Source: Bdellovibrionota bacterium (GTDB taxonomy: Bacteria; Bdellovibrionota_C; UBA2361; JAAYZI01). From it: a stretch of DNA of 64,000 nt. Of this stretch, positions 6,461 through 57,832 are shown piece after piece; position 1 is the stretch's first letter; the number at the start of each line of letters is the position of its first letter. A program made the position numbers and the translations under genes. Under the pieces are notes generated by a model that worked only from the letters and a program-made list of their open reading frames with translations, did not search any database and had not been told where the DNA came from. Location of the stretch: NCBI GenBank assembly GCA_050950765.1, contig JBMNIF010000001.1, positions 320,001-384,000 on the forward strand. Reading direction: 5' to 3'.

Positions 6461-6648
6461 TCAATTAGGACACCCACTTTTTACCCCGTCAAGATCTAGC
6501 CGATCCGCTTTGCAGTTGCAGCCCGTTCGGTTGTCCCTAGTGGGTGGCAGCAAATTTTTGACCTTCGTCCAGATCTAGCTGATTCATTTTTTAGTATCAG
6601 CCCGCTCGGTCGTTCCTAGTGGGTGGCAGTAGGTGTCTCGGATCCAAC
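6461..6648 (+). repeat. Modular repeat cluster R2
   Basis: CAATTAGGACACCCACTTTT plus two A modules ending CCTAGTGGGTGGCAG. Confidence 0.8.
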
Positions 6649-6649
6649 C

Positions 6650-7171
6650 TTAACTAACAGCAACTTCTTTGTTTCCATTTATATTTTTAATGTATGCGAA
6701 TGCAGAAGTTAAAAAAGTTGATACATCCGTTATGAAAGCTGGATAAGCTTTGATATGAAAATCGAAGATACCCCAGAGAAAGACGCTGAGCATTAAAACA
6801 GCTCTCATATTTTGGACAGACTTTACGTAATAAGTTAAAATAATGAGCGACACTGAAGCGATTATGGGAAGAATGCCAATCCAAGAATTTTTATTAAAAT
6901 AAAGGCCAAATAATATGATAACTATGCATATAGCGAATGTTATAGTTTTAGTTAATTTACCCGTTACTTCTAAAATATGCCTAATTGCCATAGATGAATT
7001 AGCAATAAATCCTGAATAGCCACCTAAAACAAGGTTAGAGAGTGCACAGAACGTGCAAGTTAAAGATATTAGCGTGATCATTTTTTTCTTGTTTTTACTA
7101 AATATAGAAAAAAGAAGAAAAGTAGCACCAGTAAAAGATAAAACCTGACCTAATAGAAATAACTTGTTCAT
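6650..7171 (-). CDS. YgjV-family inner membrane protein
   Basis: 173 aa, highly hydrophobic; LGGYSG and LWGIFD..IKAY pattern typical of YgjV-like proteins. Confidence 0.65.
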   Translation of the reverse strand: MNKLFLLGQVLSFTGATFLLFSIFSKNKKKMITLISLTCTFCALSNLVLGGYSGFIANSSMAIRHILEVTGKLTKTITFAICIVIILFGLYFNKNSWIGILPIIASVSLIILTYYVKSVQNMRAVLMLSVFLWGIFDFHIKAYPAFITDVSTFLTSAFAYIKNINGNKEVAVS

Positions 7172-7242
7172 AACTTAAATAGCCCTTAATAAAAAATAAT
7201 GTATAGCTTAATATAAATGATTTTTTAAAAATAGAGAGGGAT

Positions 7243-8268
7243 CGTCCCTAAAGGGTAGTACCAAATTTTTGACCTAATTAGGACACCCACTTTTACTGGT
7301 GGGTGGCACCAAATTTTTAACCCCCGTAGAGACCTAGCCGATTCGGTTTTTAGTTGCAGCCCGTCCAACCGTCCCTAAAGGGTGGCACCAGATCCAAGCT
7401 TCGTTTCACCGCTCCGCTGCCAATTAGGACACCCACTTTTACTGGTGGGTGGCACCAACGCCCTAAAGGGTGGCACCAAAACTGCCGAATTCTAGCTTTT
7501 GCTAACGTCTTGATATTATTGAATGTTGCGATTTTGAAGTTTGGATGTCCTATTTGCAGAACGTCTGCGACGCTAGTGGGTGGCACCAACGACAGCCCCC
7601 GACAAAGAAGGGTGGCACCAAAACTGTCGAATTCTAGCTTTTGCTAACGTCTTGATATTATTGAATGTTGCGATTTTGAAGTTTGGATGTCCTATTTGCA
7701 GAACGTCTGCGACGCTAAAGGGTGGCACCAAATTTTTAACCCCCGTAGAGACCTAACCAATTTGTTTTTTAGTTACAGCCCGTTCGGCTGTCCCTAGTGG
7801 GTTCAACCGTCCCTAAAGGGTGGCACCAAAACTGTCGAATTCTAGCTTTTGCTAACGTCTTGATATTATTGAATATTGCGATTTTGAAGTTTGGATGTCC
7901 TATTTGCAGAACGTCTGCGACGCTAAAGGGTGGCACCAAATTTTTAACCTCCGTAGAGACCTAGCCGATTCGGTTTTTAGTTGCAGCCCGTCCAACCGTC
8001 CCTAAAGGGTGGCACCAGATCCAAGCTTCGTTTCACCGCTCCGCTGCCAATTAGGACACCCACTTTTACTGGTGGGTGGCACCAAATTTTTACCCACAAA
8101 GACAAAGAAGGGTGGCACCAAATTTCCCCCGACAAAGAAGGGTGGCACCAGATCCAAGCCCAGCCAAATCTGCCTAAAGTGGTGGGTGGCACCAAATTTT
8201 TAACCCCCCCTAGAGACCTAGCCGATTCGGTTTTTAGTTGCACCCCGTTCGGCTGTCCCTAGTGGGTG
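7243..8268 (+). repeat. Modular repeat cluster R3 (about 14 GGGTGGCACCA cores with shuffled modules)
   Basis: Cores are separated by recurring modules: A (AATTTTTAACC..CGTAGAGACCTAGCCGATTCGG..GCAGCCCG), B (..CCAATTAGGACACCCACTTTTACT), C (..GAATTCTAGCTTTTGCTAACGTCTTGATATTATTG..) and short D (..GACAAAGAA). Confidence 0.9.
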
Positions 8269-24839: not shown

Positions 24840-26507
24840 GTGGCTGAAAAATTAAAGGGAAATACAAAAGGCTTATCTCTCTCTCAGATTAAGAGGGTGG
24901 AGAAGCTTTTTAATAGAAAAATTCAACAAGATGAGGTTGTATCTCCTGAGTTTGCGCGAGAGCTTTATGAGGCGGCAGAGAGTTTAGGGCGACGCATCGG
25001 TGTCTTGATAACAAGGGAAGGAGAGATTGCAGAGGTTATTTTAGGCACTAAAAATATTATATATCTCCCCGATCTTGGACGCTCTCGTTTAGGGGGTGCT
25101 CGTTTGCGACGCTTACGTTTCGTTTTTAGCGATCTCTCTATCAATGCAAAGCAAGTTATCCCGTCTGATGTCTATATTGACTTGGAAAAATTAAGGTTAG
25201 ATCTAGTGGCGGGCGTTAAGGTGGAGAAAGGCAAGGTTAGACTTGCTTACGCTTATAACGTACCGGAGAGGGGGGCTGATAATCGTGCAGTTAAAACGGA
25301 AGTAATTGAAAATTTAGCTGCGGGCACCCTTAATTTTTCGGAATTTATTGAAAACTTGGAAGGGGAGTTCTCTCGGAAAAGTTTACATGTAGCGCAAGGA
25401 AAAGATCGGGCTGTTCTTGTAGGGGTGTATCCTAAGAATGCTAAAAATGTAGAAGATTCGATGAACGAATTGCAGGAGCTGGCAAAAACGGCGGGTGTGC
25501 AAGTTATAGATAAGATCTTTCAGCGCAGGGATCCGGATCCGCGAACGTTACTTGGAAAGGGAAAACTTGAAGAGGTGGTCCTGCACTGTTTGCGGTGTGA
25601 TGCGGAGATTATTATTTTTGATACTGAATTAACGCCGTCACAGTGGCGAGTTATTACAAATAGTACGGATCTGCGTGTCTTGGATCGCAGTATGTTGATC
25701 TTAGATATCTTCTCTCAACGTGCAAGGAGTAGTGACGGACGTTTACAGGTGGAGTTAGCGCAATTAAAATATAATTTACCACGTTTAGTAGAAAAAGATG
25801 CGGGGCTTTCTCGTTTAACAGGTGGAATCGGTGGTAGAGGTCCAGGGGAAACGAAATTAGAGATTGGGCGGCGTCGTTCGAGAGAAAAAATTCGTGATAT
25901 AGAATTACAGATAGAGAAGTTTGCTAAGCAGCGAGCTTTAAAAAGACAGCAACGTAACATAAAAGAGATCCCGTTGGTGGCGTTACTCGGATACACCAAT
26001 GTTGGAAAGTCCACTCTCTTTAACGCATTAACAGATAGCTCCGTTCTGGCAGAGTCAAAACTTTTTGCCACCTTAGATCTTTCGCAGCGTAGATTGTTTC
26101 TGCCTGCTGTTGCGGAGGATGTTGATGGTGAAGGAAAAGCTATTTTTGAGGATCGGGGACGTACTGTAATTTTAGTTGATACGGTAGGGTTTATTCGAGA
26201 CCTGCCGGAGGAATTAACAGTTGCGTTTAAAGCCACTCTGGAAGAGGCGGAGGGAGCAGCGCTACTGTTGCATGTGCTGGATGCTTCAGATCCGGAGATC
26301 GCTTTAAGAAAACAGGCGGTAGATAAAATTATCTCGGATATGAATTTAGCGGATACTCCGCAGTTGATAGTTTTAAATAAAACGGATCGGATTTCAGAAG
26401 AGGAGGCTACTTTATTAGAAAAAGAGTATGGTGCCGTTGCAGTTTCTGCCTTATCAAAAAAAGGTCTGCCACTATTGTTAGGCAAGTTGGGAAGTTGCCT
26501 TAAGTAG
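24840..26507 (+). CDS. hflX: GTPase HflX with N-terminal extension
   Basis: LQVELAQL, GPGETKLE, GYTNVGKS, LFATLD, DTVGFI and NKTD motifs. Confidence 0.95.
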   Translation: MAEKLKGNTKGLSLSQIKRVEKLFNRKIQQDEVVSPEFARELYEAAESLGRRIGVLITREGEIAEVILGTKNIIYLPDLGRSRLGGARLRRLRFVFSDLSINAKQVIPSDVYIDLEKLRLDLVAGVKVEKGKVRLAYAYNVPERGADNRAVKTEVIENLAAGTLNFSEFIENLEGEFSRKSLHVAQGKDRAVLVGVYPKNAKNVEDSMNELQELAKTAGVQVIDKIFQRRDPDPRTLLGKGKLEEVVLHCLRCDAEIIIFDTELTPSQWRVITNSTDLRVLDRSMLILDIFSQRARSSDGRLQVELAQLKYNLPRLVEKDAGLSRLTGGIGGRGPGETKLEIGRRRSREKIRDIELQIEKFAKQRALKRQQRNIKEIPLVALLGYTNVGKSTLFNALTDSSVLAESKLFATLDLSQRRLFLPAVAEDVDGEGKAIFEDRGRTVILVDTVGFIRDLPEELTVAFKATLEEAEGAALLLHVLDASDPEIALRKQAVDKIISDMNLADTPQLIVLNKTDRISEEEATLLEKEYGAVAVSALSKKGLPLLLGKLGSCLK

Positions 26508-26945
26508 GGTGTTGCCCACCTTCTGATTTAGGCTTTGTAGTCAGTGCCACTTATGTTTTTAGAGGTAAGATTTTAAACTTTTTACAATTAAATTACTTAA
26601 ATAAGTTAAGGGCGTTAGCGACCGCTTAAGGCTTGGCTAAGAGTGGGTGTGTCTTTTTTGGGATATAAACGTGTTGCCTTAAAAATAAATTAGACTAAGA
26701 GGAGGAGTTGAAGTACTATCCTAGTGGCGATCTTTTTCTAAAGATTAAAAAATTAGTTAAGTAGAAGAGAAAAAATAAAGTGCTCTCGCATGACAGTTTT
26801 TATATCTCTGTGATGTGAGGGCGCACGGCAAAAATAAAGGTAATTTAGAAAGGTTTTTATACTGCTTGCGTGTCTCTCTATGGCAGCTCCTAAAAGTGTT
26901 AATGGAGCTATTACATCCATAACCTTGTTCATAAAGGAAACTATC

Positions 26946-27053
26946 ATGAACGTGAAAAGATTAGAAGACACCGTGCTTTTAGGCGGTGGCGGGTTTGAAA
27001 ACATGGAAAGATGAGAGAGCTGCGCGTTGCGCAACAACGCTCTAATTGAGTAA
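26946..27053 (+). pseudogene. Vestigial cassette 1 ORF (MNVKRLEDTVLLGGGGFENMER*ESCALRNNALIE*)
   Basis: AAAGGA SD, ATG at 26946, internal TGA, in-frame TAA abutting the trailer palindrome as in cassette 3. Confidence 0.5.
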
Positions 27054-27672
27054 ACCATCGTGCGATGGTTGTTTTCCGCAAAAACTGATTAGGAAAGGAG
27101 GTAATATGAGGTTAGAGAGCCAGAGAGGGAATGTAATCTTAACTCTGGCTCTCACCTGATAGGTTTCAAGTGTTTGCTGTGTGGCTCTCTAACCTTTTTA
27201 ATCTTCTTTAATCTTCATCTATAAGGTGTGTCTTTTTTTCTTTCATCGTGTGTTCTGCTTCTACAATTAAGGACGCTTAAACTTTACATTAAACTTTTTA
27301 CAATTAAATTACTTAAATAAGTTAAGGGCGTTAGGGATCGCTTAAGGCTTGGGTAAGAGAGGGTGTTTCTTTTTTTGGGATATAAATTAAAATTAGACTA
27401 AGAAGAAGGGATGGAATAAGATCCTGCCGGTGATCTTTATCTAAAGTTCCCCTAAAGATTAAAAAATTAGTTAGGTAGAAGAGAAAAAATAAAGTGCTCT
27501 CGCATGACAGTTTTTATATCTCTGTGATGGGAGGGCACACGGCAAAAATAAAGGTAATTTAGAAAGGTTTTATACTGCTTGCGTGCACCTCTCTATGGCA
27601 GCTCCTAAAAGTGTTAATGGAGCTATTTTCGGTAAAAACTCTTTTATAAGATTCCTTAGGAGGTACTTAACT

Positions 27673-28178
27673 ATGGATACTAAAAGAGAACGCCAACGGA
27701 AATTGTTGGAGAAAGCATGGGAAGAAAACCCAGCTCTGTTTGTTTATTGTTTGGTCATTGTGGTTGCTGAGAAAGCTCTCAAACTTGTGGGTAACAACAA
27801 TTTCGAAAGCCCAGTCTTACCAAGATCGCCTGACAACGAAGGCGAGTTTGCAATTGAACTGTGTCGAGTTAAAGAAGGTGTGGTTGTGAACTGCAAAGGT
27901 CAATCCGCACCATTCTTCGACTACAAGTTCCCGCGATCAGCGCTCGACTTTCTGTTCAAAATTGGTTCGGATGTGTTGTTGACGTTGATGATGAACGCCC
28001 CCCAGATTGCTGCGCAGCGACCCTTGAGGAACAAAATACAAAAAACCTGCGTGTATTTATTCTGTTCGCCAGACAACTGCAGAGTGATAAGAAATCCTTA
28101 GCTCAATTCGTTCTGCAGTTCGCGGATCCCCTTGAGAAGATGTTGTCTACCTTCCTCGTAAAAGCAAAAACTGATTAG
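27673..28178 (+). CDS. Cassette 2 hypothetical protein, probably frameshifted at C6 (27998-28003)
   Basis: TAGGAGGT SD before ATG 27673; as written it stops at 28101, but the alternative frame continues to TAG 28176-28178 inside the trailer. Confidence 0.6.
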
Positions 28179-28744
28179 GAAAGGAGGTAATATGAGGTTA
28201 GAGAGCCAGAGGGGAGATGTAATCTTACTCTGGCTCTCACCTGATAGGTTTCAAGTGTTTGCTGTGTGGCTCTCTAACCTTTTTAATCTTCATCTATAAG
28301 GTGTGTCTTTTTTTTCTTTTATCTTGTGTTCTGCTTCTACAATTAAGGACGCTTAAACTTTACATTAAACTTTTTACAATTAAATTACTTAAATAAGTTA
28401 AGGGCGTTAGCGACCGCTTAAGGCTTGGGTAAGAGTGGGTGTGTCTTTTTTTGGGGATATAAATTAAAATTAGACTAAGAAGAAGGGATGGAATAAGATC
28501 CTGCCGGTGATCTTTATCTAAAGTTCCCCTAAAGATTAAAAAATTAGTTAGGTAGAAGAGAAAAAATAAAGTGCTCTCGCATGACAGTTTTTATACCTCT
28601 GTGATGGGAGGGCACACGGCAAAAATAAAGGTAATTTAGAAAGGTTTTATACTGCTTGCGTGCACCTCTCTATGGCAGCTCCTAAAAGTGTTAAAGGAGC
28701 TATTACATCCATAACCTTTTTATAAGATCCTCTAGGAGGTGACT

Positions 28745-29209
28745 ATGCGTAACATCAGAGGAGAGCTCCAATGGGAATTGTTGGAGAAAGCGCGGGAAGA
28801 CAGGGAATGCTTGGGGGACTCGTCTTCCCGAGAAGAGGCCCAAAAAGCGGTTTTCAGGCTCTTTGGGGTTCTTGAGGAATATGAGCTCAGGGGAGACGCC
28901 AAGTTTACGTTTCTCCGTAGCAGAAAGTTGAAAGTCGACTTTGATGGCGGAGGCTCTACTGGGGTAGTGCATATATTCTTCCGCAATCCTGATACGAACG
29001 AGAAGATCCTTCACGTCGGAATTATGCGTGAAACGCTTGGATTCATGCTTGCGAATTTGAAGGGCTCAAAGCCTAATGAGTTTGATGGACTCTTTAAAAA
29101 ATACAAGAACAGCCTGAACAACCTCCTCATTTTCGCCGTATCACTGGAGATAGCGGAGATCGTGGAGCTGCTTAATGAAGCTCTCGATTCCCGTGATTCC
29201 GTTGAGTAG
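28745..29209 (+). CDS. Cassette 3 hypothetical protein (154 aa)
   Basis: TAGGAGGT SD before ATG 28745; stop abuts the palindrome at 29210. Confidence 0.75.
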   Translation: MRNIRGELQWELLEKAREDRECLGDSSSREEAQKAVFRLFGVLEEYELRGDAKFTFLRSRKLKVDFDGGGSTGVVHIFFRNPDTNEKILHVGIMRETLGFMLANLKGSKPNEFDGLFKKYKNSLNNLLIFAVSLEIAEIVELLNEALDSRDSVE

Positions 29210-29789
29210 ACCATCGTGCGATGGTGGTCCGCAAGAACTGATTGTAGAAAAGGTGATAAAGAGCCAGAGGGAGTATGCAATCTTAACTCTGGCTCTCACC
29301 TGATAGGTTTCAAGTGTTTGCTGTGTGGCTCTCTAACCTTTTAATCTTCATCTATAAAGCGTGGCTTTTTTTATCTTGTGATCTGCTTCTACAATTAAGG
29401 ACGCTTAAACTTTACATTAAACTTTTTACAATTGAATTACTTAAATAAGTTAAGGGCGTTAGCGACCGCTTAAGGTTTGGGTAAGAGTGGGTGTGTCTTT
29501 TTTTTAGATATAAATTAAAATTAGACTAAGAAGAAGGGATGGAATAAGATCCTGCCGGTGATCTTTATCTAAAGTTCCCCTAAAGATTAAAAAATTAGTT
29601 AGGTAGAAGAGAAAAAATAAAGTGCTCTCGCATGACAGTTTTTATATCTCTGTGATGGGAGGGCACACGGCAAAAATAAAGGTAATTTAGAAAGGTTTTT
29701 ATACTGCTTGCGTGCACCTCTCTATGGCAGCTCCTAAAAGTGTTAAAGGAGCTATTTTCGGTAAAAACTCTGATGTTAGGAGTTAGGAT

Positions 29790-30650
29790 ATGACTAAAAG
29801 TAGAAGTAATTCGACACCTAAGCCAGACTTGGGTCAGTGGTTGGCAGATGTGCGAACACAGGTGTCAAAATTCGAGGAAGCGCTAAGAGAAGCCGTAAGT
29901 AATCTGCTGGAACTCCTTAACCAAGTACCAGAAGAGGCACAACAACAGGCATCGGAAGCGTCGGAAGAACAGGCTTTGGAGCAGGAGCTAAAACAGACGC
30001 TGGAATCTTTGCTGGAACAGCTGCAACAGGCGTCAGGAGCAGAGGCGCTGGCAGATATGCTGGCAAAGGGAAGCGAGCTGATGAGCACTCAGTTGCAGAA
30101 TCGGCTGATGGCAACGATGGGATGGCTAATACATGGAAATGTATCAATGTCGACGCTAATCCAAGCGCTGCCGCTGCTATCGGAAAAAGAGCTGCAGCTT
30201 CAACTAGTACTTAAAGCTGGGTTGATACTGAGAAAACGACTGCTTCTGCAACAACTGCTGGAAAAGGCGGAAGAGATGCAGAAGGAGTTAAAACCTCGAG
30301 CACAGGAAAGCTTACTTCCCTCTCTCGCAATCCTTGCATTGGTTGGGGAGGTTGCAGCAAGTGCTTTGAAGAGAAGTGACTACCATGAGGATACGAAGAT
30401 CTCCGTACCTTTTGGGGACAACCCTCAAGAGCAATTCGAAATCAACATCACGTTTGCCACGCTTCGCCTTGTAGGGGAAACGGGGTGGGACATTTTATTG
30501 ATGTCGTTGCTCCTCGAAGAAAAATCTTATGAAGTCACTCTCAGATCGAGTAGCCAGCAAAGTCTACAAGAACTTCGTTCTCTCGCCGAACAAGTGGATC
30601 CAGAATTGGCGAAGCAGTTGATCACTGCTTTCGTAGAGCGGATCTCATAG
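29790..30650 (+). CDS. Cassette 4 hypothetical protein (Leu/Glu/Gln-rich, helical)
   Basis: 286 aa; AGGAG upstream; begins right after the conserved leader. Confidence 0.75.
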   Translation: MTKSRSNSTPKPDLGQWLADVRTQVSKFEEALREAVSNLLELLNQVPEEAQQQASEASEEQALEQELKQTLESLLEQLQQASGAEALADMLAKGSELMSTQLQNRLMATMGWLIHGNVSMSTLIQALPLLSEKELQLQLVLKAGLILRKRLLLQQLLEKAEEMQKELKPRAQESLLPSLAILALVGEVAASALKRSDYHEDTKISVPFGDNPQEQFEINITFATLRLVGETGWDILLMSLLLEEKSYEVTLRSSSQQSLQELRSLAEQVDPELAKQLITAFVERIS

Positions 30651-31298
30651 TGACTCGAGTCCTTGATTGTTAGTGCTCTTGCTGCGTAGACCATCGCGCG
30701 ATGGTTGTTTTCCGCAAAAACTGATTAGGAAAGGAGGTAATATGAGGTTAGAGAGCCAGAGGGAGTATGTAATCTTAACTCTGGCTCTCACCTGATAGGT
30801 TTCAAGTGTTTGCTGTGTGGCTCTCTAACCTTTTAATCTTTATCTATAAGGTGCGTCTTTTTTCTTTTATCTTGTGATCTGCTTCTACAATTAAGGACGC
30901 TTAAACTTTACATTAAACTTTTTACAATTAAATTACTTAAATAAGTTAAGGGCGTTAGGGCCGCTTAAGGCTTGGGTTAAGAGTGGGTGTGCCTTTTTTT
31001 TAGATATAAACGTGTTGCCTTAAAAATAAATTAGACTAAGGGGAGGAGTTGGAGTAAAGTCGTGGTGATAGTCTTCTCCCTGAAGATTAGAAAAAATTTG
31101 GTTAAGTAGAAGAAAAAGTAAGTGTTCTCTCATGACAGTTTTTTACATCTCTGTGATGGGAGAACACGGCGAAAACAAAAGGTAGAAAGGTTTTTATATA
31201 GTTTATGTTCTCCAAAAAAAATCGTTAAAGACAGCTTCTGTAATATGAATTTGCAGTAAGCTAGTCTGTCACCTTGTTCAACTTCCTTTTGCACTTAT

Positions 31299-31781
31299 GT
31301 GCTGGAAAGGACTTTCATGCAAAAGACGTTTCAGCCACCGGAAACGAAAAAGACCACTTCTCAAGTATTCCTTCACCTTCTCATGGAAATTCTGGGATTC
31401 TTGAACCAAATTGAGCCTAGTGCCGATACCCCCGTTGTTTTGTTGTGCCAAAGGCAAGATGGGAATACGCTGGCGGAAATCACGGCTGAAAAGCCTAACG
31501 CCTCGAAATACATCCTGCGCGCCAAACACGGCAATGACACTTTTACCTTTTCACTTTCTCTCGACCTGCTTGAAGAACTTTGCAAAAAGAGTTCGGACGG
31601 ATTGGAAGAATTGGCGAAAGAAATTGAGCGTGCCCGTCGGGTCCGTCGGGAAAAGGTATCGGGAAAGTGTACTGTGGCGGATGGAATCTTGGCAAAGCTT
31701 CTTCCGTTGATGGATCGAATGGACAATGCCGGTCTTCTGCGTAAGTTGGGTAATGGCTTTAAGATCGTCAAAGAAAGTTGA
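31299..31781 (+). CDS. Cassette 5 hypothetical protein (start possibly ATG 31317)
   Basis: 160 aa ORF after the diverged fifth leader; AAAGGA before ATG 31317. Confidence 0.65.
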   Translation: MLERTFMQKTFQPPETKKTTSQVFLHLLMEILGFLNQIEPSADTPVVLLCQRQDGNTLAEITAEKPNASKYILRAKHGNDTFTFSLSLDLLEELCKKSSDGLEELAKEIERARRVRREKVSGKCTVADGILAKLLPLMDRMDNAGLLRKLGNGFKIVKES

Positions 31782-31864
31782 CCTTCCATTCCTGTAGCCA
31801 CTAACTAGAAAGGAGGAAAATCCAGTTTAGTGACGAAGGGGGAAATTGAAAGAAAGTTGAAAAA

Positions 31865-31963
31865 GGCTAGCGGTGTCATGACAGAATCTTTTGGATACGA
31901 TTTAATTGGTGATTAGGGGGATTAAGGGGGAATTGAGATGGCTAGCGGTGTCATGACAGAATC
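31865..31963. repeat. Two identical 24-bp direct repeats containing the palindrome TGTCATGACA
   Basis: GGCTAGCGGTGTCATGACAGAATC at 31865-31888 and 31940-31963. Confidence 0.85.
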
Positions 31964-32298
31964 CTCAAATGACGATCACCAAAAAGGGGGAAGAGGTTGG
32001 AGAGTCAGGGAGCTAGAGAGGAGGTATTTTTCCCTGCTTCACGGCGGTTCTTATCTTGAGCCTACCTTATGGCCGCCGTGAACTCCAACCCTTTTAATCT
32101 AACTTCTTTGTGCTATTCCTTCAAAAAATTACTTCTTAAAGGTATGGAGTAAATATTCTTCACCACACCAGATATTACGGTTCGAAATATTAAGATATTG
32201 TTTGTTTTTTCGCCGCCACTGTTAATTATTTACAAATGTTGCTATATTTCTTCTCACTTGCTGAAAGTTCAGCCGTATATTTTTGAAAGGAAACATCT

Positions 32299-32877
32299 AT
32301 GGGTAAATCATTAAAAGGAACGAAAACAGAGCAGAACCTCTTAAAATCTTTTGCCGGAGAGTCTCAGGCAAGAAACAGATATACATATTTTTCAAGTGTT
32401 GCTGCCAAAGAAGGCTATAAGCAGATCTCTCTTATCTTTGAAGAGACAGCTGATCACGAAAAAGAACATGCAAAACGGATGTTTAAATACCTAGAAGGTG
32501 GCGATCTTGAAATAACCTCTACTTATCCTGCTGGTAAAATCGGGACAACTTTAGAAAATCTTGAAGCTGCCGCTTGCGGTGAAAACGAAGAGTGGTCTCA
32601 ACTTTATCCCGAGTTTGCAGCTGTCGCCAGATCTGAAGGATTCGAAGATATCGCAGAGATGTACGAAGCGATCTGCGTCGCTGAAAAACAACATGAAAAA
32701 CGGTATCGTGCTTTGGCAGATAACATCAAAAACGGAGTTGTCTTCAAAAAAGACGGTAAGATCTTCTGGAGATGCCTAAACTGCGGTTATATCCATGAAG
32801 GTGATACCGCTCCTGTTGTTTGCCCAGCCTGCGTGCATCCGCAAGCTCATTTCGAAGAGTTGGCTGAAAATTGGTAG
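32299..32877 (+). CDS. rbr: Rubrerythrin
   Basis: FAGESQARNRY, EKEHAKR, EKQHE and C-terminal WRCLNCGY...CPACVHP. Confidence 0.95.
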   Translation: MGKSLKGTKTEQNLLKSFAGESQARNRYTYFSSVAAKEGYKQISLIFEETADHEKEHAKRMFKYLEGGDLEITSTYPAGKIGTTLENLEAAACGENEEWSQLYPEFAAVARSEGFEDIAEMYEAICVAEKQHEKRYRALADNIKNGVVFKKDGKIFWRCLNCGYIHEGDTAPVVCPACVHPQAHFEELAENW

Positions 32878-32928
32878 AGAGTAACGCTATGCACAAATAG
32901 ACCGTTTGAAGTCTGTGCATAGTAATTT

Positions 32929-32956
32929 TAAGGGCACGTCTTTAGGGGGTGCCCTT
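32929..32956 (+). terminator. Probable intrinsic terminator after rbr
   Basis: AAGGGCAC...GTGCCCTT inverted repeat. Confidence 0.5.
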
Positions 32957-33589
32957 CTCCCCAACTCCCGAGTCTTTTGAAGTTTTTTAGTTGTTTAGTT
33001 GAAATTCGTTCATTGTAAAGATCTAGCTCGGTTTAAATTATTAGAGCCATCATATGCCGTAGTCCATCTGATAACGTAAAAAGTTTGGCATGTTAGAGTT
33101 ATCTCATTTGATTTATTATATTTTTTTAAATAATCCTCAATAGTTAATCGACTAAATAGACGACTCAAAAAAAGTTTAGGGCTTCAGTTTTTAATATAAG
33201 AATATAAAAAAAATCTATTTAATTTAAAAAGTTAGAAACACCTTAGCGATAAGTAGCGATATCTGTTTGCTGACATTGGCGCTTTGCACTGGCATTGCGT
33301 CAACAAGGTTATGCTGAATGTTTCACAATAAATAATCGAATTCGATTATCGTGAGGATTTAGTGTGTCTAAAAGTGCAAAAAACAATCTGTCTATCTGTC
33401 ACAGTGGCTTTTACGCTTACGGTGATTTGTAGCAGTGCATATATATTGTTGCTTAGTTGTATTGGCTTCTCACTAACTTAGAGGGAGTCAAGATAATTAC
33501 AGCATAGAAAACGTTGCGATTATACTTTTAGTGTAGTTGCCAACAAACAACAACTAGTACTAGCTTTTGCTAGTTAGAAAGGTTTCATC

Positions 33590-34576
33590 ATGAAACTAGA
33601 CAAAGACTGCGCCCTAAATGGGCTACTTGCCTTCTGCATCGTTTTTGGATCTGTGTTTGCGTATGAAGGCGCGAAATACTTTGCGCCATACATAAAGGGC
33701 ACGAATCGGGTTCAATCCGTTGCTCAACAGAGCGGCGAGTCCGACGATGAACCGAGCGGCGAGTTCGACGATAAATCGAACGGCGTGCTTGGCGAGATGT
33801 CCTTCGATATCCTTGACGAGGATGTTCTCGACGGTCTCCAATCCCAACAAGGCGACACCGCCTCTGAACGAGGCGTTGCGTCGGGGGGGCCTGTCGCCAC
33901 GGTGGAGTGCGGTAGCGACCTTAGCCCTGAAGAGAGGGAGGAAGTGGCGCGCTTTATTAGTGGGCTTGTCCTCAAAATGAAGCTAGCTGACCCCTTCGAA
34001 GATCCCCCTGCGGAGTTCTCCACGGGGGACTGCGTCGCTGAATTGGCGAAATCAATCAAACGTCTCGCTTGGTGGACTGAGGCTATCGGTGATTTCTCCG
34101 AGGCGTTCTTGGATAATGATCCTAAAGTCGCTGCCACGTTACGTGGTACGGCGCAAGCTTTCAAGGTTATGACCACCAAGGTCGAGCGTCTGGAAGCAAT
34201 CGTCGAGGAAAAAGGCGACGACTCCTTAAAGGATCCTGAAGCGTTACAGTGCGCCGCTGCAATCAAAATTGCCGCTTGGTGGATCGATAGATCCTTCAGT
34301 GACGTTAGATGTAGTGACCCAGAACGTGTTGGATTCGATGGGAATGTCGGCTTGCTGTTCTCGTTCTGTGAAACAATTCTCGAAAGAGCGTCGCAATATC
34401 AAGAACGACAAGAATGGAAGCCTGGTGACCTGTTGTCAGGTTGTGGGGCATGCGTTTCTAGCTTAACAGTCGAGGAGATTCCTGAGTCTACGACGACGGA
34501 TCCCACGCCTATGACGATGGTTCCTGAGTCTACGACGATGGTTCCTGAGTCTGCTGCGAATGCCCTTGCACTCTAG
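33590..34576 (+). CDS. Hypothetical exported/anchored acidic protein with C-terminal PEST(T) repeats
   Basis: N-terminal hydrophobic helix, several Cys residues, CCTGAGTCT repeated 3x near the 3' end; GC-richer than its flanks. Confidence 0.7.
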   Translation: MKLDKDCALNGLLAFCIVFGSVFAYEGAKYFAPYIKGTNRVQSVAQQSGESDDEPSGEFDDKSNGVLGEMSFDILDEDVLDGLQSQQGDTASERGVASGGPVATVECGSDLSPEEREEVARFISGLVLKMKLADPFEDPPAEFSTGDCVAELAKSIKRLAWWTEAIGDFSEAFLDNDPKVAATLRGTAQAFKVMTTKVERLEAIVEEKGDDSLKDPEALQCAAAIKIAAWWIDRSFSDVRCSDPERVGFDGNVGLLFSFCETILERASQYQERQEWKPGDLLSGCGACVSSLTVEEIPESTTTDPTPMTMVPESTTMVPESAANALAL

Positions 34577-34606
34577 ACGATGTTTATCGTCAGCAACAAC
34601 CTTTTT

Positions 34607-34636
34607 GAAGCTCTCCTCGGAGGGCTTCATTTCTTT
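34607..34636 (+). terminator. Intrinsic terminator-like hairpin
   Basis: GAAGCTCTCC-TC-GGAGGGCTTC followed by ATTTCTTT. Confidence 0.55.
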
Positions 34637-34881
34637 AGTGCGTTATTTATTGCAAGGATTGTAAGGTGAGATCTAAAGGGAGTAGAACGCCATCTGCCTT
34701 GATTAGGTGAGATTAGATTTAGTAATTTAGATAGGTAAGTCTTATTAAATAAACAGAGATTAATTTTATACAGTGAGCTGTATGAGATTTGATTTTAGTG
34801 ATCTGTTTTAAATTATTAGAGTTGTTACGTGTATGTTTTCTTTGTATGGCGGTGTGGAAGGCTTAGCACGTTAGTGCACCT

Positions 34882-43943: not shown

Positions 43944-45508
43944 CCCAAACTTTCCCCTTTTTACGTATGTTAAGTAAGTAACAGTTCGGCTATTTTTAGC
44001 TCTGCTTTAGTTTGCTCGGCTAAATACCAAGAGTCCCCAAGCCTAACTTTTTTAATTTCAGATAACCTTCTGATAGCATCTTCTAATGATATTGAAGTCG
44101 AAAGTTTATGTTTTTTTATTGTTTTTAATATTTCATAGCTCCACTGTATTGCTATGTGATTCACGAACATCCATCCCTGAAATTTATCATCATCACTCAT
44201 ATATGAAGCATCTGCTTTTAAAACAGTTTTTAACGTATCAAAAGATTGTTCAATAGATAGTCGCATTTTGTATAACGTGTATATTTCTTCTGCGGATGAG
44301 TCCAAATTTGAAAAGAATGCAACAGTTCCTAGCCTCACTTTTTTTAAATCAACATCTGTTAAATTGTATTTTTCTGGATGAGATATTGTTAATGAAACTA
44401 AGTTATTTTCCTCTTCACCTGCTAAAAACGGGTCTCTAAACAGATATATAAATCCATTCCCAATCTTATATTTTTTATATCTTAAGTACGTTTTATTATA
44501 TTCAATAACGTTCCTGCTTGTTTCTATTCCATCATAGTCTATAAGAGAGCTATTTCTACGCAATGGAATAACAAAGCTAAGTTTATTCTCTATAAGATCT
44601 TTAACGTTAGACTCTGAATAGAAACCCTTATCTGCAATAATAGTAGCATCACCAATTTCTGATTCTTGGATAGTTAAAGATAGAGCTTTTACATCTCTTA
44701 TATTCCCAGCCAATAACCTATAATAGACTGGTTGTTGCAATTTTTTAGAGTAAATATAAAGCAAACTCGCCTGCGTTTCCCAAAAATGGTCTTTATTATA
44801 TCCTCCTTTAGCAAGACTCGACTTTCTCATAGATGTTCTAAGAAATGTAGAATCAATTAACAAAAAATCTTTTCCATGAATAAAACTCTTCATATATTCA
44901 GAACGAGCAAATTCATCTTTCCCAATCGATTGCAAAATATTCGGAATAGCTTTCTTATTAAGAAGAAAATTAAGTTTTTCACTCAACATACTGTTTTCAA
45001 AATCATCATTCATGCGTTTAATAGGAGAGCAATGTTTGATCCTGCTGTATGACATCAGCAAAATAGCCTTCCACTTATCTGGAAAATAACACCGAAGTCT
45101 TTCAATAATTGTTTTTTGATTGAGGATAAATTGAGATAAACCATACTCTCTGCACTTAATATTCACAGCAGGTACAAGGCTTCTCTTCTCACTTGGTATA
45201 AAACCGTCCTCTTCTGTAATTCGTCCAAGTAATTTACCAGTAACTTTCACGCTCCTTTTCCTCTCAGGGTCATACTTATAGCTGTAGCTATATAGGTAAT
45301 ATCTCCCATTGATAAGACGTACCTCTTTTCCTTTCTCTCGATATTTTGTTGCCCAATCAGGGTGTATTTTTGCTTTCTTTCCCATACCTAAATACGTATG
45401 TCAAAACAACAAAAAAGTCAACCCCCTTTTTTGTTAATTTTTAAAAAATTTCTATAGGTTATAACAATATGTTACTTTATTGTTACGTAAATCACAGAAA
45501 AGTTTGGG
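43944..45508 (-). mobile_element. Complete IS1634/IS4-like insertion sequence (1565 bp) with 6-bp TSD TTCAAC
   Basis: Imperfect TIRs CCCAAACTTT..TTACGTA / TACGTAA..AAAGTTTGGG; TTCAAC at 43938-43943 and 45509-45514. Confidence 0.92.
43970..45385 (-). CDS. DDE transposase (IS1634/IS4 superfamily)
   Basis: LLIDST, IIADKGFYS and Y..R..IEQSF..LK catalytic motifs. Confidence 0.92.
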   Translation of the reverse strand: MGKKAKIHPDWATKYREKGKEVRLINGRYYLYSYSYKYDPERKRSVKVTGKLLGRITEEDGFIPSEKRSLVPAVNIKCREYGLSQFILNQKTIIERLRCYFPDKWKAILLMSYSRIKHCSPIKRMNDDFENSMLSEKLNFLLNKKAIPNILQSIGKDEFARSEYMKSFIHGKDFLLIDSTFLRTSMRKSSLAKGGYNKDHFWETQASLLYIYSKKLQQPVYYRLLAGNIRDVKALSLTIQESEIGDATIIADKGFYSESNVKDLIENKLSFVIPLRRNSSLIDYDGIETSRNVIEYNKTYLRYKKYKIGNGFIYLFRDPFLAGEEENNLVSLTISHPEKYNLTDVDLKKVRLGTVAFFSNLDSSAEEIYTLYKMRLSIEQSFDTLKTVLKADASYMSDDDKFQGWMFVNHIAIQWSYEILKTIKKHKLSTSISLEDAIRRLSEIKKVRLGDSWYLAEQTKAELKIAELLLT

Positions 45509-46629: not shown

Positions 46630-46761
46630 AATTTCCTCTCATATTTTAGAATTATTTTTACAATCGAAAGCATGATTCTAGAGCAATTTTCTAAAATCAC
46701 TATTAGCATATTCTAACACAAACTAGTTTTGCTTCTTAAAAGTTGCAATAGACTCTTCTTA

Positions 46762-47345
46762 CTGAAGGGTGGCACCAAATTTTTAACCTCCGTCCAGATC
46801 TAGCTGATCCCGCTTTTTAGTTGCAGCCCGTCTTTCAACCGGTGGGCGGTCGTCCTTGAAGGGTGGCACCTGCTTTTTAAGCCCCTTCCAATTAGGACAC
46901 CCACTTTTTGCTGAAGGGTGGCACCAAATTTTTAACCTCCGTAAGGATCTAGCCGATCCGTTTTGCAATTTTATCCCGTTCGGTCGTCCCTGAAGGGTGG
47001 CACCAAATTTTTTACCTCCGTCCAGATCTAGCTGATCCCGTTTTTTAGTTGCAGCCAGTCTTTCAACCGGTGGGCAACCGTCCCTGAAGGGTGGCACCAA
47101 AAAGCCGAATTCTAAACTTTTGCTAACGTCTTGATATTATTAGATGTTGTAATTTTAGACTCTTTTAGCTCTGGTGGGTGGCACCTGCTTTTTAAGCCCC
47201 TTCCAATTAGGACACCCACTTTTTACTGAAGGGTGGCACCAAATTTTTGACCCCAAATTTTTGACCTCCGTCCAGATCTAGCTGAGCCCGTTTTTTAGTT
47301 GCAGCCCGTCTTTCAACCGGTGGCAACCGTCCTTGGTGGGTGGCG
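46762..47345 (+). repeat. Modular repeat cluster R5
   Basis: Multiple GAAGGGTGGCACCA cores with A, B and C modules. Confidence 0.9.
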
Positions 47346-55651: not shown

Positions 55652-56535
55652 AATTTGGTGCCACCCTTCAGCTAAAAGTGGGTGTCCTAATTGAAAATTT
55701 GGTGCCACCCTTCAGTTTGGGCAGATCTAGCAATTTTAGCTGCGGCTGTCGCTGGTGCCACCCACCAGTAAAAAGTGGGTGTCCTAATTGGCAACGGGGT
55801 TAAAAACTGGTGCCACCCATTAATACCGCAGACGCTCTAAAACTACCTAACTAATAATATCAAGACGTTAGCAAAAGCTTAAAATTTGGCAGTTTTGGTG
55901 CCACCCTTCAGGGACGCTAGGACGGGCTGCAACTAAAAAACAAATTGGTTAGATCTTTACGAGGGTTAAAAATTTGGTGCCACCCTTCAGTTTGGGCAGA
56001 TCTAGCAATTTTAGCTGCGGCTGTCGCTGGTGCCACCCACCAGTAAAAAGTGGGTGTCCTAATTGGCAACGGGGTTAAAAACTGGTGCCACCCATTAATA
56101 CCGCAGACGCTCTAAAACTACCCTAACTAATAATATCAAGACGTTAGCAAAAGCTTAAATTTGGCAGTTTTGGTGCCACCCTTCAGTTTGGGCAGATCTA
56201 GCAATTTTAGCTGCGGCTGTCGCTGGTGCTACCCTTCAGCAAAAAGTGGGTGTCCTAATTGGCAATGGGGTTAAAAACTGGTGCCACCCATTAATACCGC
56301 AGACGCTCTAAAACTACCCTAGTTAATAATATCAGGACGTTAGCAAAAGCTTAAATTTGGCAGTTTTGGTGCCACCCACCAGTAAGACGGGATCTGGTAG
56401 ATTTAGCTAGCTTGCAACTGGTGCCACCCTTCAGGGACGATTGTTTAAAGTGGGTGTCCTAATTGGCAGCAGGGCTTGGATTTGGTGCCACCCTTCAGGA
56501 ATTTTTTCCCTCCCTGCAAGGTGGGTGGCACCAGT
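55652..56535 (-). repeat. Modular repeat cluster R6 (reverse orientation, TGGTGCCACCC cores)
   Basis: Many TGGTGCCACCC cores with reverse-complement A/B/C modules and an extra module (TTCAGTTTGGGCAGATCTAGCAATTTTAGCTGCGGC); last core at ~56524 is inverted. Confidence 0.9.
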
Positions 56536-56694
56536 GTTTATGTATTTTTTTTGTAAAAAATATGTATCCTTTTTGTATTACTATCATCAAACTAACTATG
56601 GATGGAGAGAGGAGTGTAGGGTAAGAACGTATAATAAAATGCTAATCATGCGATTTTATTGGGTATTTTTATGTTCTTCTAAGAGAGTGTGGAT

Positions 56695-56982
56695 ATGATA
56701 GAGTTTAATGATGATCAGCTCCTGATTTTTGAAAAAGAGCGTATCGAATGCGCCGATGTTTTGTCTTTATTAGGAGACCTGCACGACGATGAATTGCCTG
56801 AAGTTTTAAAAGAACGTGTAGAGCACCACATCGCAGAATGCGAATATTGCAGAACAGTAAGAGACGAGTATGAGCTGACCATCTTTATTGCACATCAATT
56901 ACAGCAAACTGAAATCCCGTTAGATGTTCATAACAGACTTAGGGAGAGCCTTAATCGCAGACTCGGATTGAATCTTAAATAG
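56695..56982 (+). CDS. Small zf-HC2 (ZAS) anti-sigma-like protein
   Basis: C..V...L....D.EL.......VEHHIAECEYC (HxxxCxxC). Confidence 0.8.
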   Translation: MIEFNDDQLLIFEKERIECADVLSLLGDLHDDELPEVLKERVEHHIAECEYCRTVRDEYELTIFIAHQLQQTEIPLDVHNRLRESLNRRLGLNLK

Positions 56983-57742
56983 TTTTTGGTGCCACCCTTC
57001 AGGGACGATTGAGCGGGCTGCAACTAAAAAACAAATTGGTTAGGTCTCTACGGAGGTCAAAAATTTGGTGCCACCCATTAATACCGCAGACGCTTTAAAA
57101 GTACCCTAACTAATAATATCAAGACGTTAGCAAAAGCTTAAATTTGGCAGTTTTGGTGCCACCCTTCAGTTTGGGCAGATCTAGCAATTTTAGCTGCGGC
57201 TGTCGCTGGTGCCACCCACCAGTAAAAAGTGGGTGTCCTAATTGGTAGCAGGGCTTGGATTTGGCGTTAAAAACTGGTGCCACCCATTAATACCGCAGAC
57301 GCTCTAAAACTACCCTAACTAATAATATCAAGACGTTAGCAAAAGCTTAAATTTGGCAGTTTTGGTGCCACCCTTCAGTTTGGGCAGATCTAGCAATTTT
57401 AGCTGCGGCTGTCGCTGGTGCTACCCTTCAGCAAAAAGTGGGTGTCCTAATTGGTAGCAGGGCTTGGATTTGGTGCCACCCTTCAGGGACGATTGAGTGG
57501 GCTGCAACTAAAAAACAAATTGGTTAGGTCTCTACGGAGGTCAAAAATTTGGTGCCACCCTTCAGGGACGATTGAGCGAGCTGCAACTAAAAAACAAATT
57601 GGTTAGGTCTCTACGGAGGTCAAAAATTTGGTGCCACCCTTCAGTAAGACGCCCCCACTAGGGACGGTTGAACGGGCTGATACTGAAAAGCGAATCAGCT
57701 AGATTTTTACGAAGGTAAAAAGTGCCACCCTTCAGCTAAAAG
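56983..57742 (-). repeat. Modular repeat cluster R7 (reverse orientation)
   Basis: Begins immediately after the TAG of the zf-HC2 gene; multiple TGGTGCCACCC cores. Confidence 0.9.
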
Positions 57743-57832
57743 TGGTCAAACTTAGCCTACCGCAAGGGTAGCGTCGAATTTGGCTTATATCTTTTTTATT
57801 ATTGTTTTTGAGCGCAAAATATTATACCGATT

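Follow-up and report, generated by a model that had tools for sequence, protein, structure and literature searches.

An array of five units between hflX and rbr

The window analysed here is the whole of a 64,000-nt stretch from a Bdellovibrionota bacterium (G000:C1:320001-384000), whose genome comprises 2.64 Mb in five contigs with about 40% G+C and is 94% complete; coordinates without a prefix are those of the window, and G000:C1, C2, C3 and C5 denote contigs of this same genome. Between hflX (24840..26507, plus strand), which codes for a 555-aa protein (Pfam GTP-bdg_N, 6.5e-29; GTP-bdg_M, 3.8e-26; MMR_HSR1, 1.8e-17), and the rubrerythrin gene rbr (32299..32877, plus strand; Rubrerythrin, 2.4e-29; RUBY_RBDX, 4.1e-15) lies an array of five units in one orientation, each with a leader, a Shine-Dalgarno (SD) sequence, an open reading frame (ORF) and a trailer. 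This arrangement had been proposed from an earlier inspection of the window (the original prediction), and it is borne out by a repeat search, by the sequence and its alignments and, for the bordering genes, by Pfam. Across the genome, at least nine families of conserved flanks frame orphan genes with a high G+C content at third codon positions (GC3), and within this class the array is the largest member.

The search for direct repeats in 25000-34000 finds 13 families of 2-5 copies each, spaced 714-1501 nt apart, and the linkers of the array, each made up of a trailer and the leader that follows it, span 540-590 nt. When one of them (27040-27675) is compared with the whole genome by BLASTN, as the original prediction had recommended, it returns the four further array copies (93.9% identity over 589 nt, 90.5% over 600 nt, 82.5% over 544 nt and, for leader 1 against leader 2, 85.6% over 354 nt) and a sixth unit, which stands alone on the minus strand at G000:C1:50747-52008, 295 kb from the array, where it frames a 246-aa ORF (leader 78.4% over 296 nt, trailer 75.2% over 129 nt). 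Pairwise global alignment gives 0.72-0.98 matches per shorter sequence for the leaders and 0.62-0.99 for the trailers. The linkers had been described as nearly identical, and this is true of the three inner ones, with inner leaders 97-98% identical to one another, but not of leaders 1 and 5 or of trailer 5, which are clearly more diverged. Leader 1 (26573..26912, plus strand; 219.5 bits with the leader-core covariance model R1) is of an outer subtype, and has in common with leader 5 a 12-nt insertion and other variants.

Along the plus strand, the linker between units 1 and 2 (27050..27642; BLASTN, repeats, alignments and folding) consists of trailer 1, a junction of about 50 nt and leader 2; that between units 2 and 3 (28164..28719; BLASTN, repeats and alignment) consists of a trailer 2 that is without the stop-codon hairpin and of leader 3; that between units 3 and 4 (29207..29771; BLASTN, repeats and folding) holds trailer 3 and leader 4; and that between units 4 and 5 (30686..31227; BLASTN, folding and the run contigs described below) holds trailer 4 and leader 5. 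The trailers start at or near the stop codon, with GTAG or GTAA followed by ACCATCG..CGATGGT. In trailer 1 the latter forms the stop-codon hairpin; next come GGTTAGAGAGCC..GGCTCTCTAACC, which make up the long closing stem, and a T-run. Trailer 5 (31794..32102, plus strand; sequence, alignment and RNAalifold) is diverged and has the same closing-stem design (GGTTGGAG..CTCCAACC, then TTTTAATCT). The junction between a trailer and the next leader is identical in all four internal linkers and absent both at the left end of the array and from the solitary unit, which fits amplification or insertion by recombination inside the linkers.

We note in addition that trailer 5 contains an internal direct repeat, GGCTAGCGGTGTCATGACAGAATC, in two copies (31866-31889 and 31941-31964), which the other trailers do not have. 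A short ORF of 17-35 codons (MRLESQ...) with a strong SD overlaps the closing stem in trailers 1, 2 and 4 (27104-27157, 28192-28299 and 30742-30795); it was rejected as a functional part, trailer 3 and the solitary unit being without it. A 40-nt piece of the promoter-like start of the leader recurs at 82.5% identity at G000:C1:54470-54505 (minus strand), between two ATPase-like genes and 2.5 kb from the solitary unit.

Cargo ORFs

The first cassette holds a vestige, an ORF of 22 codons plus stop (26946..27014, plus strand; sequence and frame translations) inside a 137-nt remnant (26913-27049), after which about 13 more codons continue out of frame before the trailer stop, and the remnant looks like an internally deleted ORF. 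The other four cargos, all on the plus strand, are intact. Cargo c2 (27673..28101; sequence and six-frame search) is an orphan of 142 aa when read from the ATG behind AGGAGG, and other assemblies start it at an upstream ATG, which gives 168 aa; c3 (28745..29209) is an orphan of 154 aa, the TAG stop of which is the first triplet of the conserved trailer; c4 (29790..30650) is a helix-rich orphan of 286 aa; and c5 (31317..31781) is a protein of 154 aa with one known strain variant. The array ORFs have an SD at the proper distance and the coding pattern GC1 > GC2. In c2, behind an A-run and a C-run at 27960-28167, a second frame stays open for about 45 codons and ends at a TAG that lies within the conserved trailer, and c2 may be an old frameshifted gene; since other assemblies carry the same c2 stop, the frameshift is either an old lesion or no lesion.

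Pairwise global alignment of the ORFs gives scores of 0.31-0.66, and for shuffled sequences the mean scores are 0.34-0.53 and the highest 0.59-0.67; the ORF scores lie within the shuffled range and the ORFs are therefore at chance level, in agreement with the earlier claim that they have no alignable nucleotide identity. BLASTP of ORF against ORF, c2 included, finds no pair at E<=1e-3. The exception concerns c2 and c3, which are 85% identical over 40 nt near their 5' ends, and translations of c2, c3 and the solitary ORF have in common an N-terminal helix, LLEKA/LLERA. Units 2 and 3 are 93-100% identical up to 27624; identity then drops to 60-70% in a zone comprising the SD and some 21 initial codons, past which it is no better than chance. 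Judged from these alignments, the step in identity and the common helix suggest that the two cargos may belong to an old family and that their linkers were reset recently, most simply via gene conversion or unequal crossing-over.

The intact cargos find next to no relatives. Cargo c3 finds only itself among 5.8 billion clusters, c4 (with HMMER) only itself among 1.84 billion representatives, and the solitary ORF, too, only itself in a search of these collections; the single relative of c5 found in the protein collections is the 90% variant, identical at 138 of 154 residues, and a six-frame search with c2 finds nothing in 100 relatives. None of the cargo reaches the cut-off in Pfam, PHROGs, NCBIfam or PADLOC. 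A structure search had also been suggested, and the AlphaFold2 (AF2) model of c5, a helix, four strands and helices with a predicted local distance difference test (pLDDT) score of 72.4, has no Foldseek match at E<=0.001 and a best VIA-align Z of 4.9, which is below noise level; the model of c3 is of low confidence (pLDDT 50.5). Atlas searches with c4 and c5 give no usable match, and the best E in a PDB sequence search with c4 is 0.045. Two metagenome loci considered as c5 relatives (36-38% over about 70 residues) were rejected, as they have one common octapeptide in an unrelated 262-aa protein and are without leader or trailer. It is a guess that the cargo proteins serve some fast-moving conflict, in the manner of effectors or immunity proteins.

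Codon usage of the cargo

Against a reference of 1,472 ORFs of at least 200 aa (mean GC3 0.349, standard deviation 0.045), the five intact cargos of the array and the solitary unit reach 0.50-0.57 in GC3, which puts them no lower than the 99.6th percentile, and their codon-usage index is in the lowest 0-0.5%; hflX and rbr have ordinary codon usage. The ORFs are also, as had been claimed, richer in G+C overall than the linkers (0.45-0.49 versus 0.36-0.37). The cargo favours NNC over NNT and avoids TTA, a bias opposite in direction to that of the ribosomal-protein operon, and it is thus not a signature of high expression; the values for GAC are 0.45 in the cargo, 0.17 in the genome and 0.12 in the ribosomal-protein genes, and those for TTC are 0.58, 0.23 and 0.33 respectively. 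Among the flank families described below, that of the array (F1) is rich in G at third positions, and F2-F6 are rich in C. This composition might stem from import out of a pool richer in G+C, from gene conversion that is biased where recombination is frequent, or from selection on the mRNA.

Predicted structure of leaders and trailers

The leader is predicted to fold at -92.5 kcal/mol on the plus strand (z -2.4) versus -64.8 kcal/mol on the minus strand (z -1.95). With RNAalifold we obtain 71 predicted pairs in the leader, three of them with compensatory changes on both sides, and 30 in the trailer, four of them compensatory; the trailer fold has a z of -3.07, and not one of 200 shuffles folds as well. 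By eye, the SD-proximal hairpin and the trailer stems are kept in unit 5 and in the solitary unit through paired changes, for example GAGCCA/TGGCTC versus GAGTCA/TGACTC. An element of the leader is predicted to pair with the SD in four of the six units, with z below -2 in two units only. The closing stem of the trailer with its U-run looks like a terminator. A central hairpin in the leader is followed by a T-run on the minus strand; it might be a minus-strand terminator, but this reading is weaker in the orphan pair F7 described below. A scan with Rfam 15 has no match at E<=1 inside the array (the lone weak hit is to sau-6072, E 0.18, at 34592-34634), and in the nine loci of the class there are no matches at E<=0.1. 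The leader presumably works as RNA, and is a candidate for a new structured RNA of about 300 nt.

Expression and strain variation

Parts of the window are held by 24 public bioreactor or digester runs, eight of which are RNA libraries; the runs are available as contigs, and those of two RNA runs and two DNA runs were placed on 29790-32900, which includes one linker only. In the RNA runs (X7 and X9), contigs match c4, c5, the part of trailer 5 that ends at 31978 and the cassette-1 remnant, covering 29790-30727 in the c4 region and 31198/9-31794/31827 in the c5 region; in record 12 of X7 the cassette-1 remnant is joined to a trailer, with a loose end before 30686. In record 28 of X9 (597 nt), letters 31198-31227 and 31794-31827 flank 533 unlike letters, where the c5 segment of the reference has 566 nt, and the edges of the differing segment thus lie at 31227/31228 on the left and at 31794 on the right. 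Record 14 of X7 has the same joint, and the DNA run X8 contains c5 pieces as well as a contig in which unlike sequence gives way to trailer 5 precisely at 31794; the final 30 letters of this unlike sequence are absent from the bacterium's own genome. A second cargo between the same cassette-5 flanks is present in the community.

Proteins identical to c2-c5 are on record from other assemblies, with 1-5 contigs each (NCBI, JGI and Logan). In one strain variant c5 is altered at 16 of its 154 residues, and the neighbouring ORF of family F3 is identical at 315 of 328 (6 residues and one 7-residue indel); the longest contig recorded for these variants measures 5,599 nt, and they presumably sit together on one contig.

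A genome-wide class of framed orphan genes

We listed the high-GC3 ORFs of the genome and clustered their upstream flanks, with all 1,840 plausible ORFs as the control and with a conserved upstream flank defined as one of at least 180 nt and at least 75% identity that reaches within 120 nt of the ATG. A conserved flank together with a diverged protein is found for 30 ORFs, which include 16 of the 42 high-GC3 ORFs and 14 of the 1,798 others (odds ratio 78, p 2.6e-20), and most of these 14 are insertion sequence (IS) insertions or slightly lower-GC3 partners in the same families. Flank and protein are both conserved for 27 ORFs, none of which is high in GC3. Within families F2-F6, identity in the upstream flank is 85-98% across 120-390 nt and in the downstream flank 84-98%, and the proteins are unalignable or 36-41% identical. 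The original prediction had presented the array as a possibly undescribed system of its own, and this does not hold, given at least eight other flank families of the same design in the genome and a published analogue, discussed below.

One of these families, F3, has a unit behind rbr (33246..34644, plus strand), with a 341-nt leader, a 328-aa high-GC3 orphan ORF (33590-34576), a stop-codon hairpin and a terminator; its paralogue at G000:C3:201876-203097 has a leader 85% identical over 341 nt, a trailer 84% identical over 68 nt or 78% over 99 nt, and a protein 39-40% identical. Flank clustering further places F2 at C2:625-629 kb, F4 at C2:1025-1027 kb, F5 at C2:1157-1160 kb and F6 at C3:682-687 kb, and the genome-wide control adds F8 (C2:535-537 kb) and F9 (C3:77-79 kb). 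The leaders of the orphan pair F7 (C1:33.5-35.6 kb) are weakly matched by model R1, at the expected position and in the expected orientation (E 0.002 and 0.009 within the locus, 0.015 and 0.068 over 41.5 kb), and have in common with F1 a purine-rich box and a hairpin of different letters. Pfam matches none of 14 further ORFs of the class. No k-mer is common to leaders of different families above the level of random sets, and the families are therefore without an obvious joint promoter motif. As to the proteins themselves, the 328-aa ORF of F3 has an N-terminal hydrophobic anchor, and both F6 proteins have signal-peptide-like N-termini.

Distribution of the frames and search for machinery

Comparison of the linker with related genomes, another of the checks proposed for it, finds no carrier of the frame (that is, of trailer plus leader): BLASTN with the linker matches none of 40 relatives, and R1 finds the six copies of the bacterium itself and none in 150 relatives. 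Exact-pattern scans for the leader hairpin find none in JGI metagenome contigs, GTDB genome contigs or IMG/VR, from which records of this genome or of a very near one may be left out. The linker has no match in phage or plasmid records, and neither it nor c4 matches any of 50,697 phage records. Since they occur in none of the 150 relatives, the pattern scans or the phage and plasmid records, the frames are lineage-specific. In none of nine loci from relatives, all of them distant, does rbr lie within 1.5 kb downstream of hflX.

The original prediction was right that no integrase, recombinase or reverse transcriptase is adjacent. The reverse transcriptase expected of a diversity-generating retroelement (PF00078) has no match in the genome; of tyrosine recombinases (PF00589) there are three, on C2 and C3, and none on C1; and the integron integrase model TIGR02249 scores at best 49.8 bits in this genome, against a cut-off of 265. 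We find no terminal inverted repeats, the sole inverted pair found being that between two trailer hairpins. Within the genome the linker matches only its own six copies, with no similarity to an IS; a match to an IS end or to a miniature inverted-repeat transposable element, which had been named as a finding that would refute the original prediction, is thus absent from the genome, and phage and plasmid records gave the linker no match either. Nor is there any match in the genome resembling a CRISPR spacer directed at the F1 units.

Mobile and repeated DNA is nonetheless present in the genome. A DDE transposase gene (PF01609, 1.6e-21) lies at 43970-45385, 12 kb downstream of the array, in a multi-copy repeat of 1.9 kb that has no sequence in common with the linkers. 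Six near-identical ORFs of 332-350 aa with weak similarity to Y1 transposases (PF01797, 31.9-32.5 bits) lie in repeats of 1.6-1.9 kb at G000:C2:7795, C2:892855, C2:1186722, C3:211452, C5:8074 and C1:184936, and are possibly an active IS or a REP (repetitive extragenic palindrome)-associated transposase linked to short repeats. Arrays of interspersed 70-80-nt repeats, in hundreds of copies, are found on all contigs and in the window, for example at 6478-8268, 46760-47344 and 55691-57745.

Proposed origin of the array and its alternatives

The reading that we put forward, and to which we give roughly an even chance, is that the five array units are self-contained transcription units, that their frames are constrained regulatory modules homogenised by ordinary homologous recombination, and that their ORFs are partly old, fast-diverging paralogues and partly replaced alleles. 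Each unit would begin with an AT-rich, promoter-like start, which for unit 5 would be at about 30907-30934, and continue through a folded leader of about 300 nt, which ends in a hairpin and a ribosome-binding site, to a single lineage-specific orphan ORF and a 3' module, in which a small hairpin sits at the stop codon and a U-run accompanies the long closing stem. The frames, of about 0.55 kb, would be regulatory modules under purifying selection and, because they are long direct repeats, would also recombine by ordinary homologous recombination, whether through gene conversion, unequal crossing-over, pop-out and re-insertion of an ORF with one linker, or allelic replacement after DNA uptake. 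Such recombination would keep the frames alike while the ORFs between them stay different, with no need for a dedicated recombinase; some of the ORFs (c2, c3 and the solitary ORF, with their common helix) would be old and very fast-diverging paralogues, and others replaced alleles. From the contrast in rates and the mosaic steps we infer that recombination between the frames both homogenises them and swaps the cargo. The original prediction had posed exchangeable cargo and homogenised modules as alternatives, and each keeps support, the former from the alternative cargo and the foreign codon usage, the latter from the c2-c3 identity step and the common helix; the two are probably two faces of one process. 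A dedicated cassette system is not supported.

Several observations weigh against this proposal. No recombination event is directly shown, and most of the informative columns in the leader alignment agree with a single tree, ((2,4),3),(1,5), the few columns incompatible with it including several in T-runs. The alternative cargo of cassette 5 could be an extra paralogous unit in another strain, and not an allele of the same slot; both RNA contigs that carry it begin 30 nt before the point at which the cargos diverge, and this offset fits an artefact of the k-mer graph as well as it fits a real 5' end. Sigma-70-like hexamers (TTTACA-16-TAAATT) are found in three of the five leaders, and promoter-like hexamers in the region show no excess over shuffles (7 found versus 8.6 expected), so that the promoter is only inferred. 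No RNA contig of X7 or X9 lies on 30728-31197, which is most of leader 5, and this gap is at most a weak hint at a 5' end. The foreign-looking codon usage of the cargo in all families is left unexplained by the model. Finally, all of the data come from one species, the nearest genomes compared being distant, with HflX only 52-61% identical.

A bolder version, which we consider unlikely, would make the array part of a chromosomal 'expression-socket' system, in which the folded frames of at least nine families serve as landing pads for the exchange of orphan ORFs of foreign composition within the strain population, as a functional analogue of the integron that dispenses with an integrase, the leader RNA also gating translation. 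We think it about equally unlikely that there is no exchange at all, and that the array is a plain old tandem gene family in which ancient paralogous ORFs have diverged under relaxed or diversifying selection, strong constraint alone keeps the frames alike, and the alternative cargo is a very diverged allele or paralogue. The N-terminal helix of c2, c3 and the solitary ORF and the zone of 60-70% identity over the start of c2 and c3 are what such a family would leave behind, as is the tree of leader variants; the ORFs of F3 and F6 are still 39-41% identical between flanks of 85-98%, and the models of c5 and c3 have the same order of elements (helix, four strands, helices), the c3 model being of low confidence. 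It is difficult, however, to reconcile inner leaders at 97-98% identity beside ORFs at chance level with constraint alone, as rates would have to differ well over tenfold inside a single duplication unit if neither conversion nor replacement took place. Identity also falls abruptly, and old resident genes should have drifted to the codon usage of the genome, whereas the cargos are all in its extreme tail. A dedicated site-specific cassette system, in which a recombinase encoded elsewhere or an unfamiliar enzyme recognises the folded trailer or leader and inserts and excises foreign ORFs as in an integron, is less probable again. Its attractions are the co-oriented, unrelated-looking orphans of foreign composition between conserved folded repeats, the different cargo within the same flanks in other samples, the near-empty cassette with its 137-nt remnant, and the six copies of the Y1-transposase-like ORF, as enzymes of that type act on hairpin DNA. 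The edges of conservation differ between units, though: the left edge lies anywhere from 30 to 90 nt before the ATG, and the right edge is at GTAG in four units and 30 nt later in c2; the palindrome of the trailer, GTT...AAC, has the reverse of the attC core order, and there are neither terminal inverted repeats nor any likeness of the linkers to an IS copy of the genome or to a phage or plasmid record. With no reverse transcriptase or integron integrase above cut-off in the genome, no recombinase on the contig, and edges that depend on the unit, RecA-type exchange is favoured over a site-specific system.

The remaining explanations seem to us still less probable. That the units were left behind by a phage or another mobile element, and are moron-like or resemble the phage cassettes discussed below, with the codon usage of a virus of the host as the donor, is quite improbable: it would account for the foreign codon usage in all families and for the autonomy of each promoter-gene-terminator unit, and has a precedent in those cassettes, but none of the five cargos has a PHROG hit, the phage records and the IMG/VR pattern scan gave no match, housekeeping genes surround the array, units are found on three different contigs, and no CRISPR-spacer-like match to the F1 units was found. 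Much the same low probability, or one slightly lower, attaches to the idea that it is the tandem linkers that function as genes, for small or antisense RNAs or as DNA to which proteins bind, the ORFs being passengers of little importance. The linkers are indeed the conserved part, the central leader hairpin with its minus-strand T-run resembles the terminator of an antisense transcript, and most of leader 5 is without an RNA contig; yet each ORF has a well-placed SD and the GC1 > GC2 pattern, ORFs of up to 286 codons stay open, the 90% variant of c5 keeps the frame, the contigs of the RNA runs lie on the ORFs, and the leader folds much better on the plus strand than on the minus strand. An assembly artefact, through a collapsed or chimeric repeat, is barely credible. 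Repeats of 0.5 kb are hard to assemble, and short-read contigs break within the linkers, but the array lies inside a 544-kb contig of a five-contig genome, the identical c2-c5 proteins come from other assemblies, six DNA runs hold 0.65-0.89 of the sampled words, and contigs of run X4 tile 29790-32900, the uniquely placed ones without differences.

Relation to known systems

The promoter-early stem-loop (PeSL) cassettes of T4-type phages appear to be the closest published analogue of the array. They are described as composites of a stem-loop terminator and a sigma-70-like promoter between ORFans, extending from a stop codon to the next SD and start (Arbiol et al. 2010, PMC2839356). Homologous recombination from module to module deletes, inserts or replaces unrelated ORFs, and mini-circles of an ORF with its module can be released (Arbiol et al. 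2010, PMC2839356; Comeau et al. 2014, PMC4122927). As far as those descriptions go, the array has in common with them the terminator-like and promoter-like modules between orphan ORFs, from stop codon to SD and ATG, here recognised in silico only, and, in the mechanism proposed above, the lack of a dedicated recombinase. It differs from them as they are portrayed there in lying on a bacterial chromosome between housekeeping genes and not in a phage hyperplastic region, in having linkers of about 0.55 kb with a folded leader of ~300 nt where the PeSL is a short promoter and stem-loop motif, and in that several unrelated flank families with a common codon anomaly of the cargo occur in one genome. 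The PeSL accounts also report ORF swaps between close strains and circles, whereas the possible counterpart here is the 533-nt alternative cargo of X7, X9 and X8, which may sit in the same slot of another strain or in an extra unit.

Arrays of integrons and of clusters of attC sites lacking an integron integrase (CALINs), with attC repeats such as the Vibrio cholerae repeats (VCRs) of Vibrio, consist of co-oriented, mostly orphan ORFs of atypical composition between conserved folded repeats, and in each of these respects the present array is like them. The attC sites are imperfect palindromes of 57-141 nt with the cores RYYYAAC ... GTTRRRY. The earlier remark that the linkers do not resemble attC agrees with our reading by eye of the array trailer, GGTTAGAGAGCC ... 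GGCTCTCTAACC, in which the 5' arm carries GTT and the 3' arm AAC, the order being reversed. The array also differs from an integron in that the genome has no IntI above the cut-off, in that its linkers are four to ten times longer, and in that each unit has its own promoter-like start and terminator-like stem, where integron cassettes are promoterless behind a common promoter, Pc.

The rAID-1 immunity-gene arrays of Bacteroidales have a conserved XerD-family recombinase at the head, and many of their genes are recognisable immunity homologues (Ross et al., bioRxiv 10.1101/471110). The array is unlike them in that contig C1 has no PF00589 match; its cargo is below threshold in Pfam, NCBIfam and PADLOC. 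In Borrelia, the ospE/ospF-related genes, which are plasmid-borne lipoprotein paralogues, reportedly (work of Marconi et al. from 1996) have a common 'upstream homology box', the upstream non-coding DNA being better conserved than the coding DNA. The better conservation of non-coding upstream sequence is a likeness to the array, in which, unlike in Borrelia, conservation covers the frames on the 5' and the 3' side alike, the majority of ORFs do not align and the loci lie on the chromosome. Phage morons are autonomous promoter-gene-terminator units between other genes, in prophages, without a common long frame; the units of the array are likewise autonomous units between other genes, but have a common long frame and lie between housekeeping genes. 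The best-supported mechanism is recombination between conserved regulatory frames around orphan genes that turn over fast, and the array would then be a counterpart, on a bacterial chromosome and with long leaders and several flank families, of what is known from phages.

If the frames do act both as expression modules and as homology arms, a free-living bacterium would keep a fast-turning pool of orphan genes without a dedicated recombinase, and such plug-and-play orphan pools are documented in print mainly for T4-type phages. The link between frames, orphan status and foreign codon usage, with its odds ratio of 78, is a simple computable signature by which gene pools of this type may be sought elsewhere.

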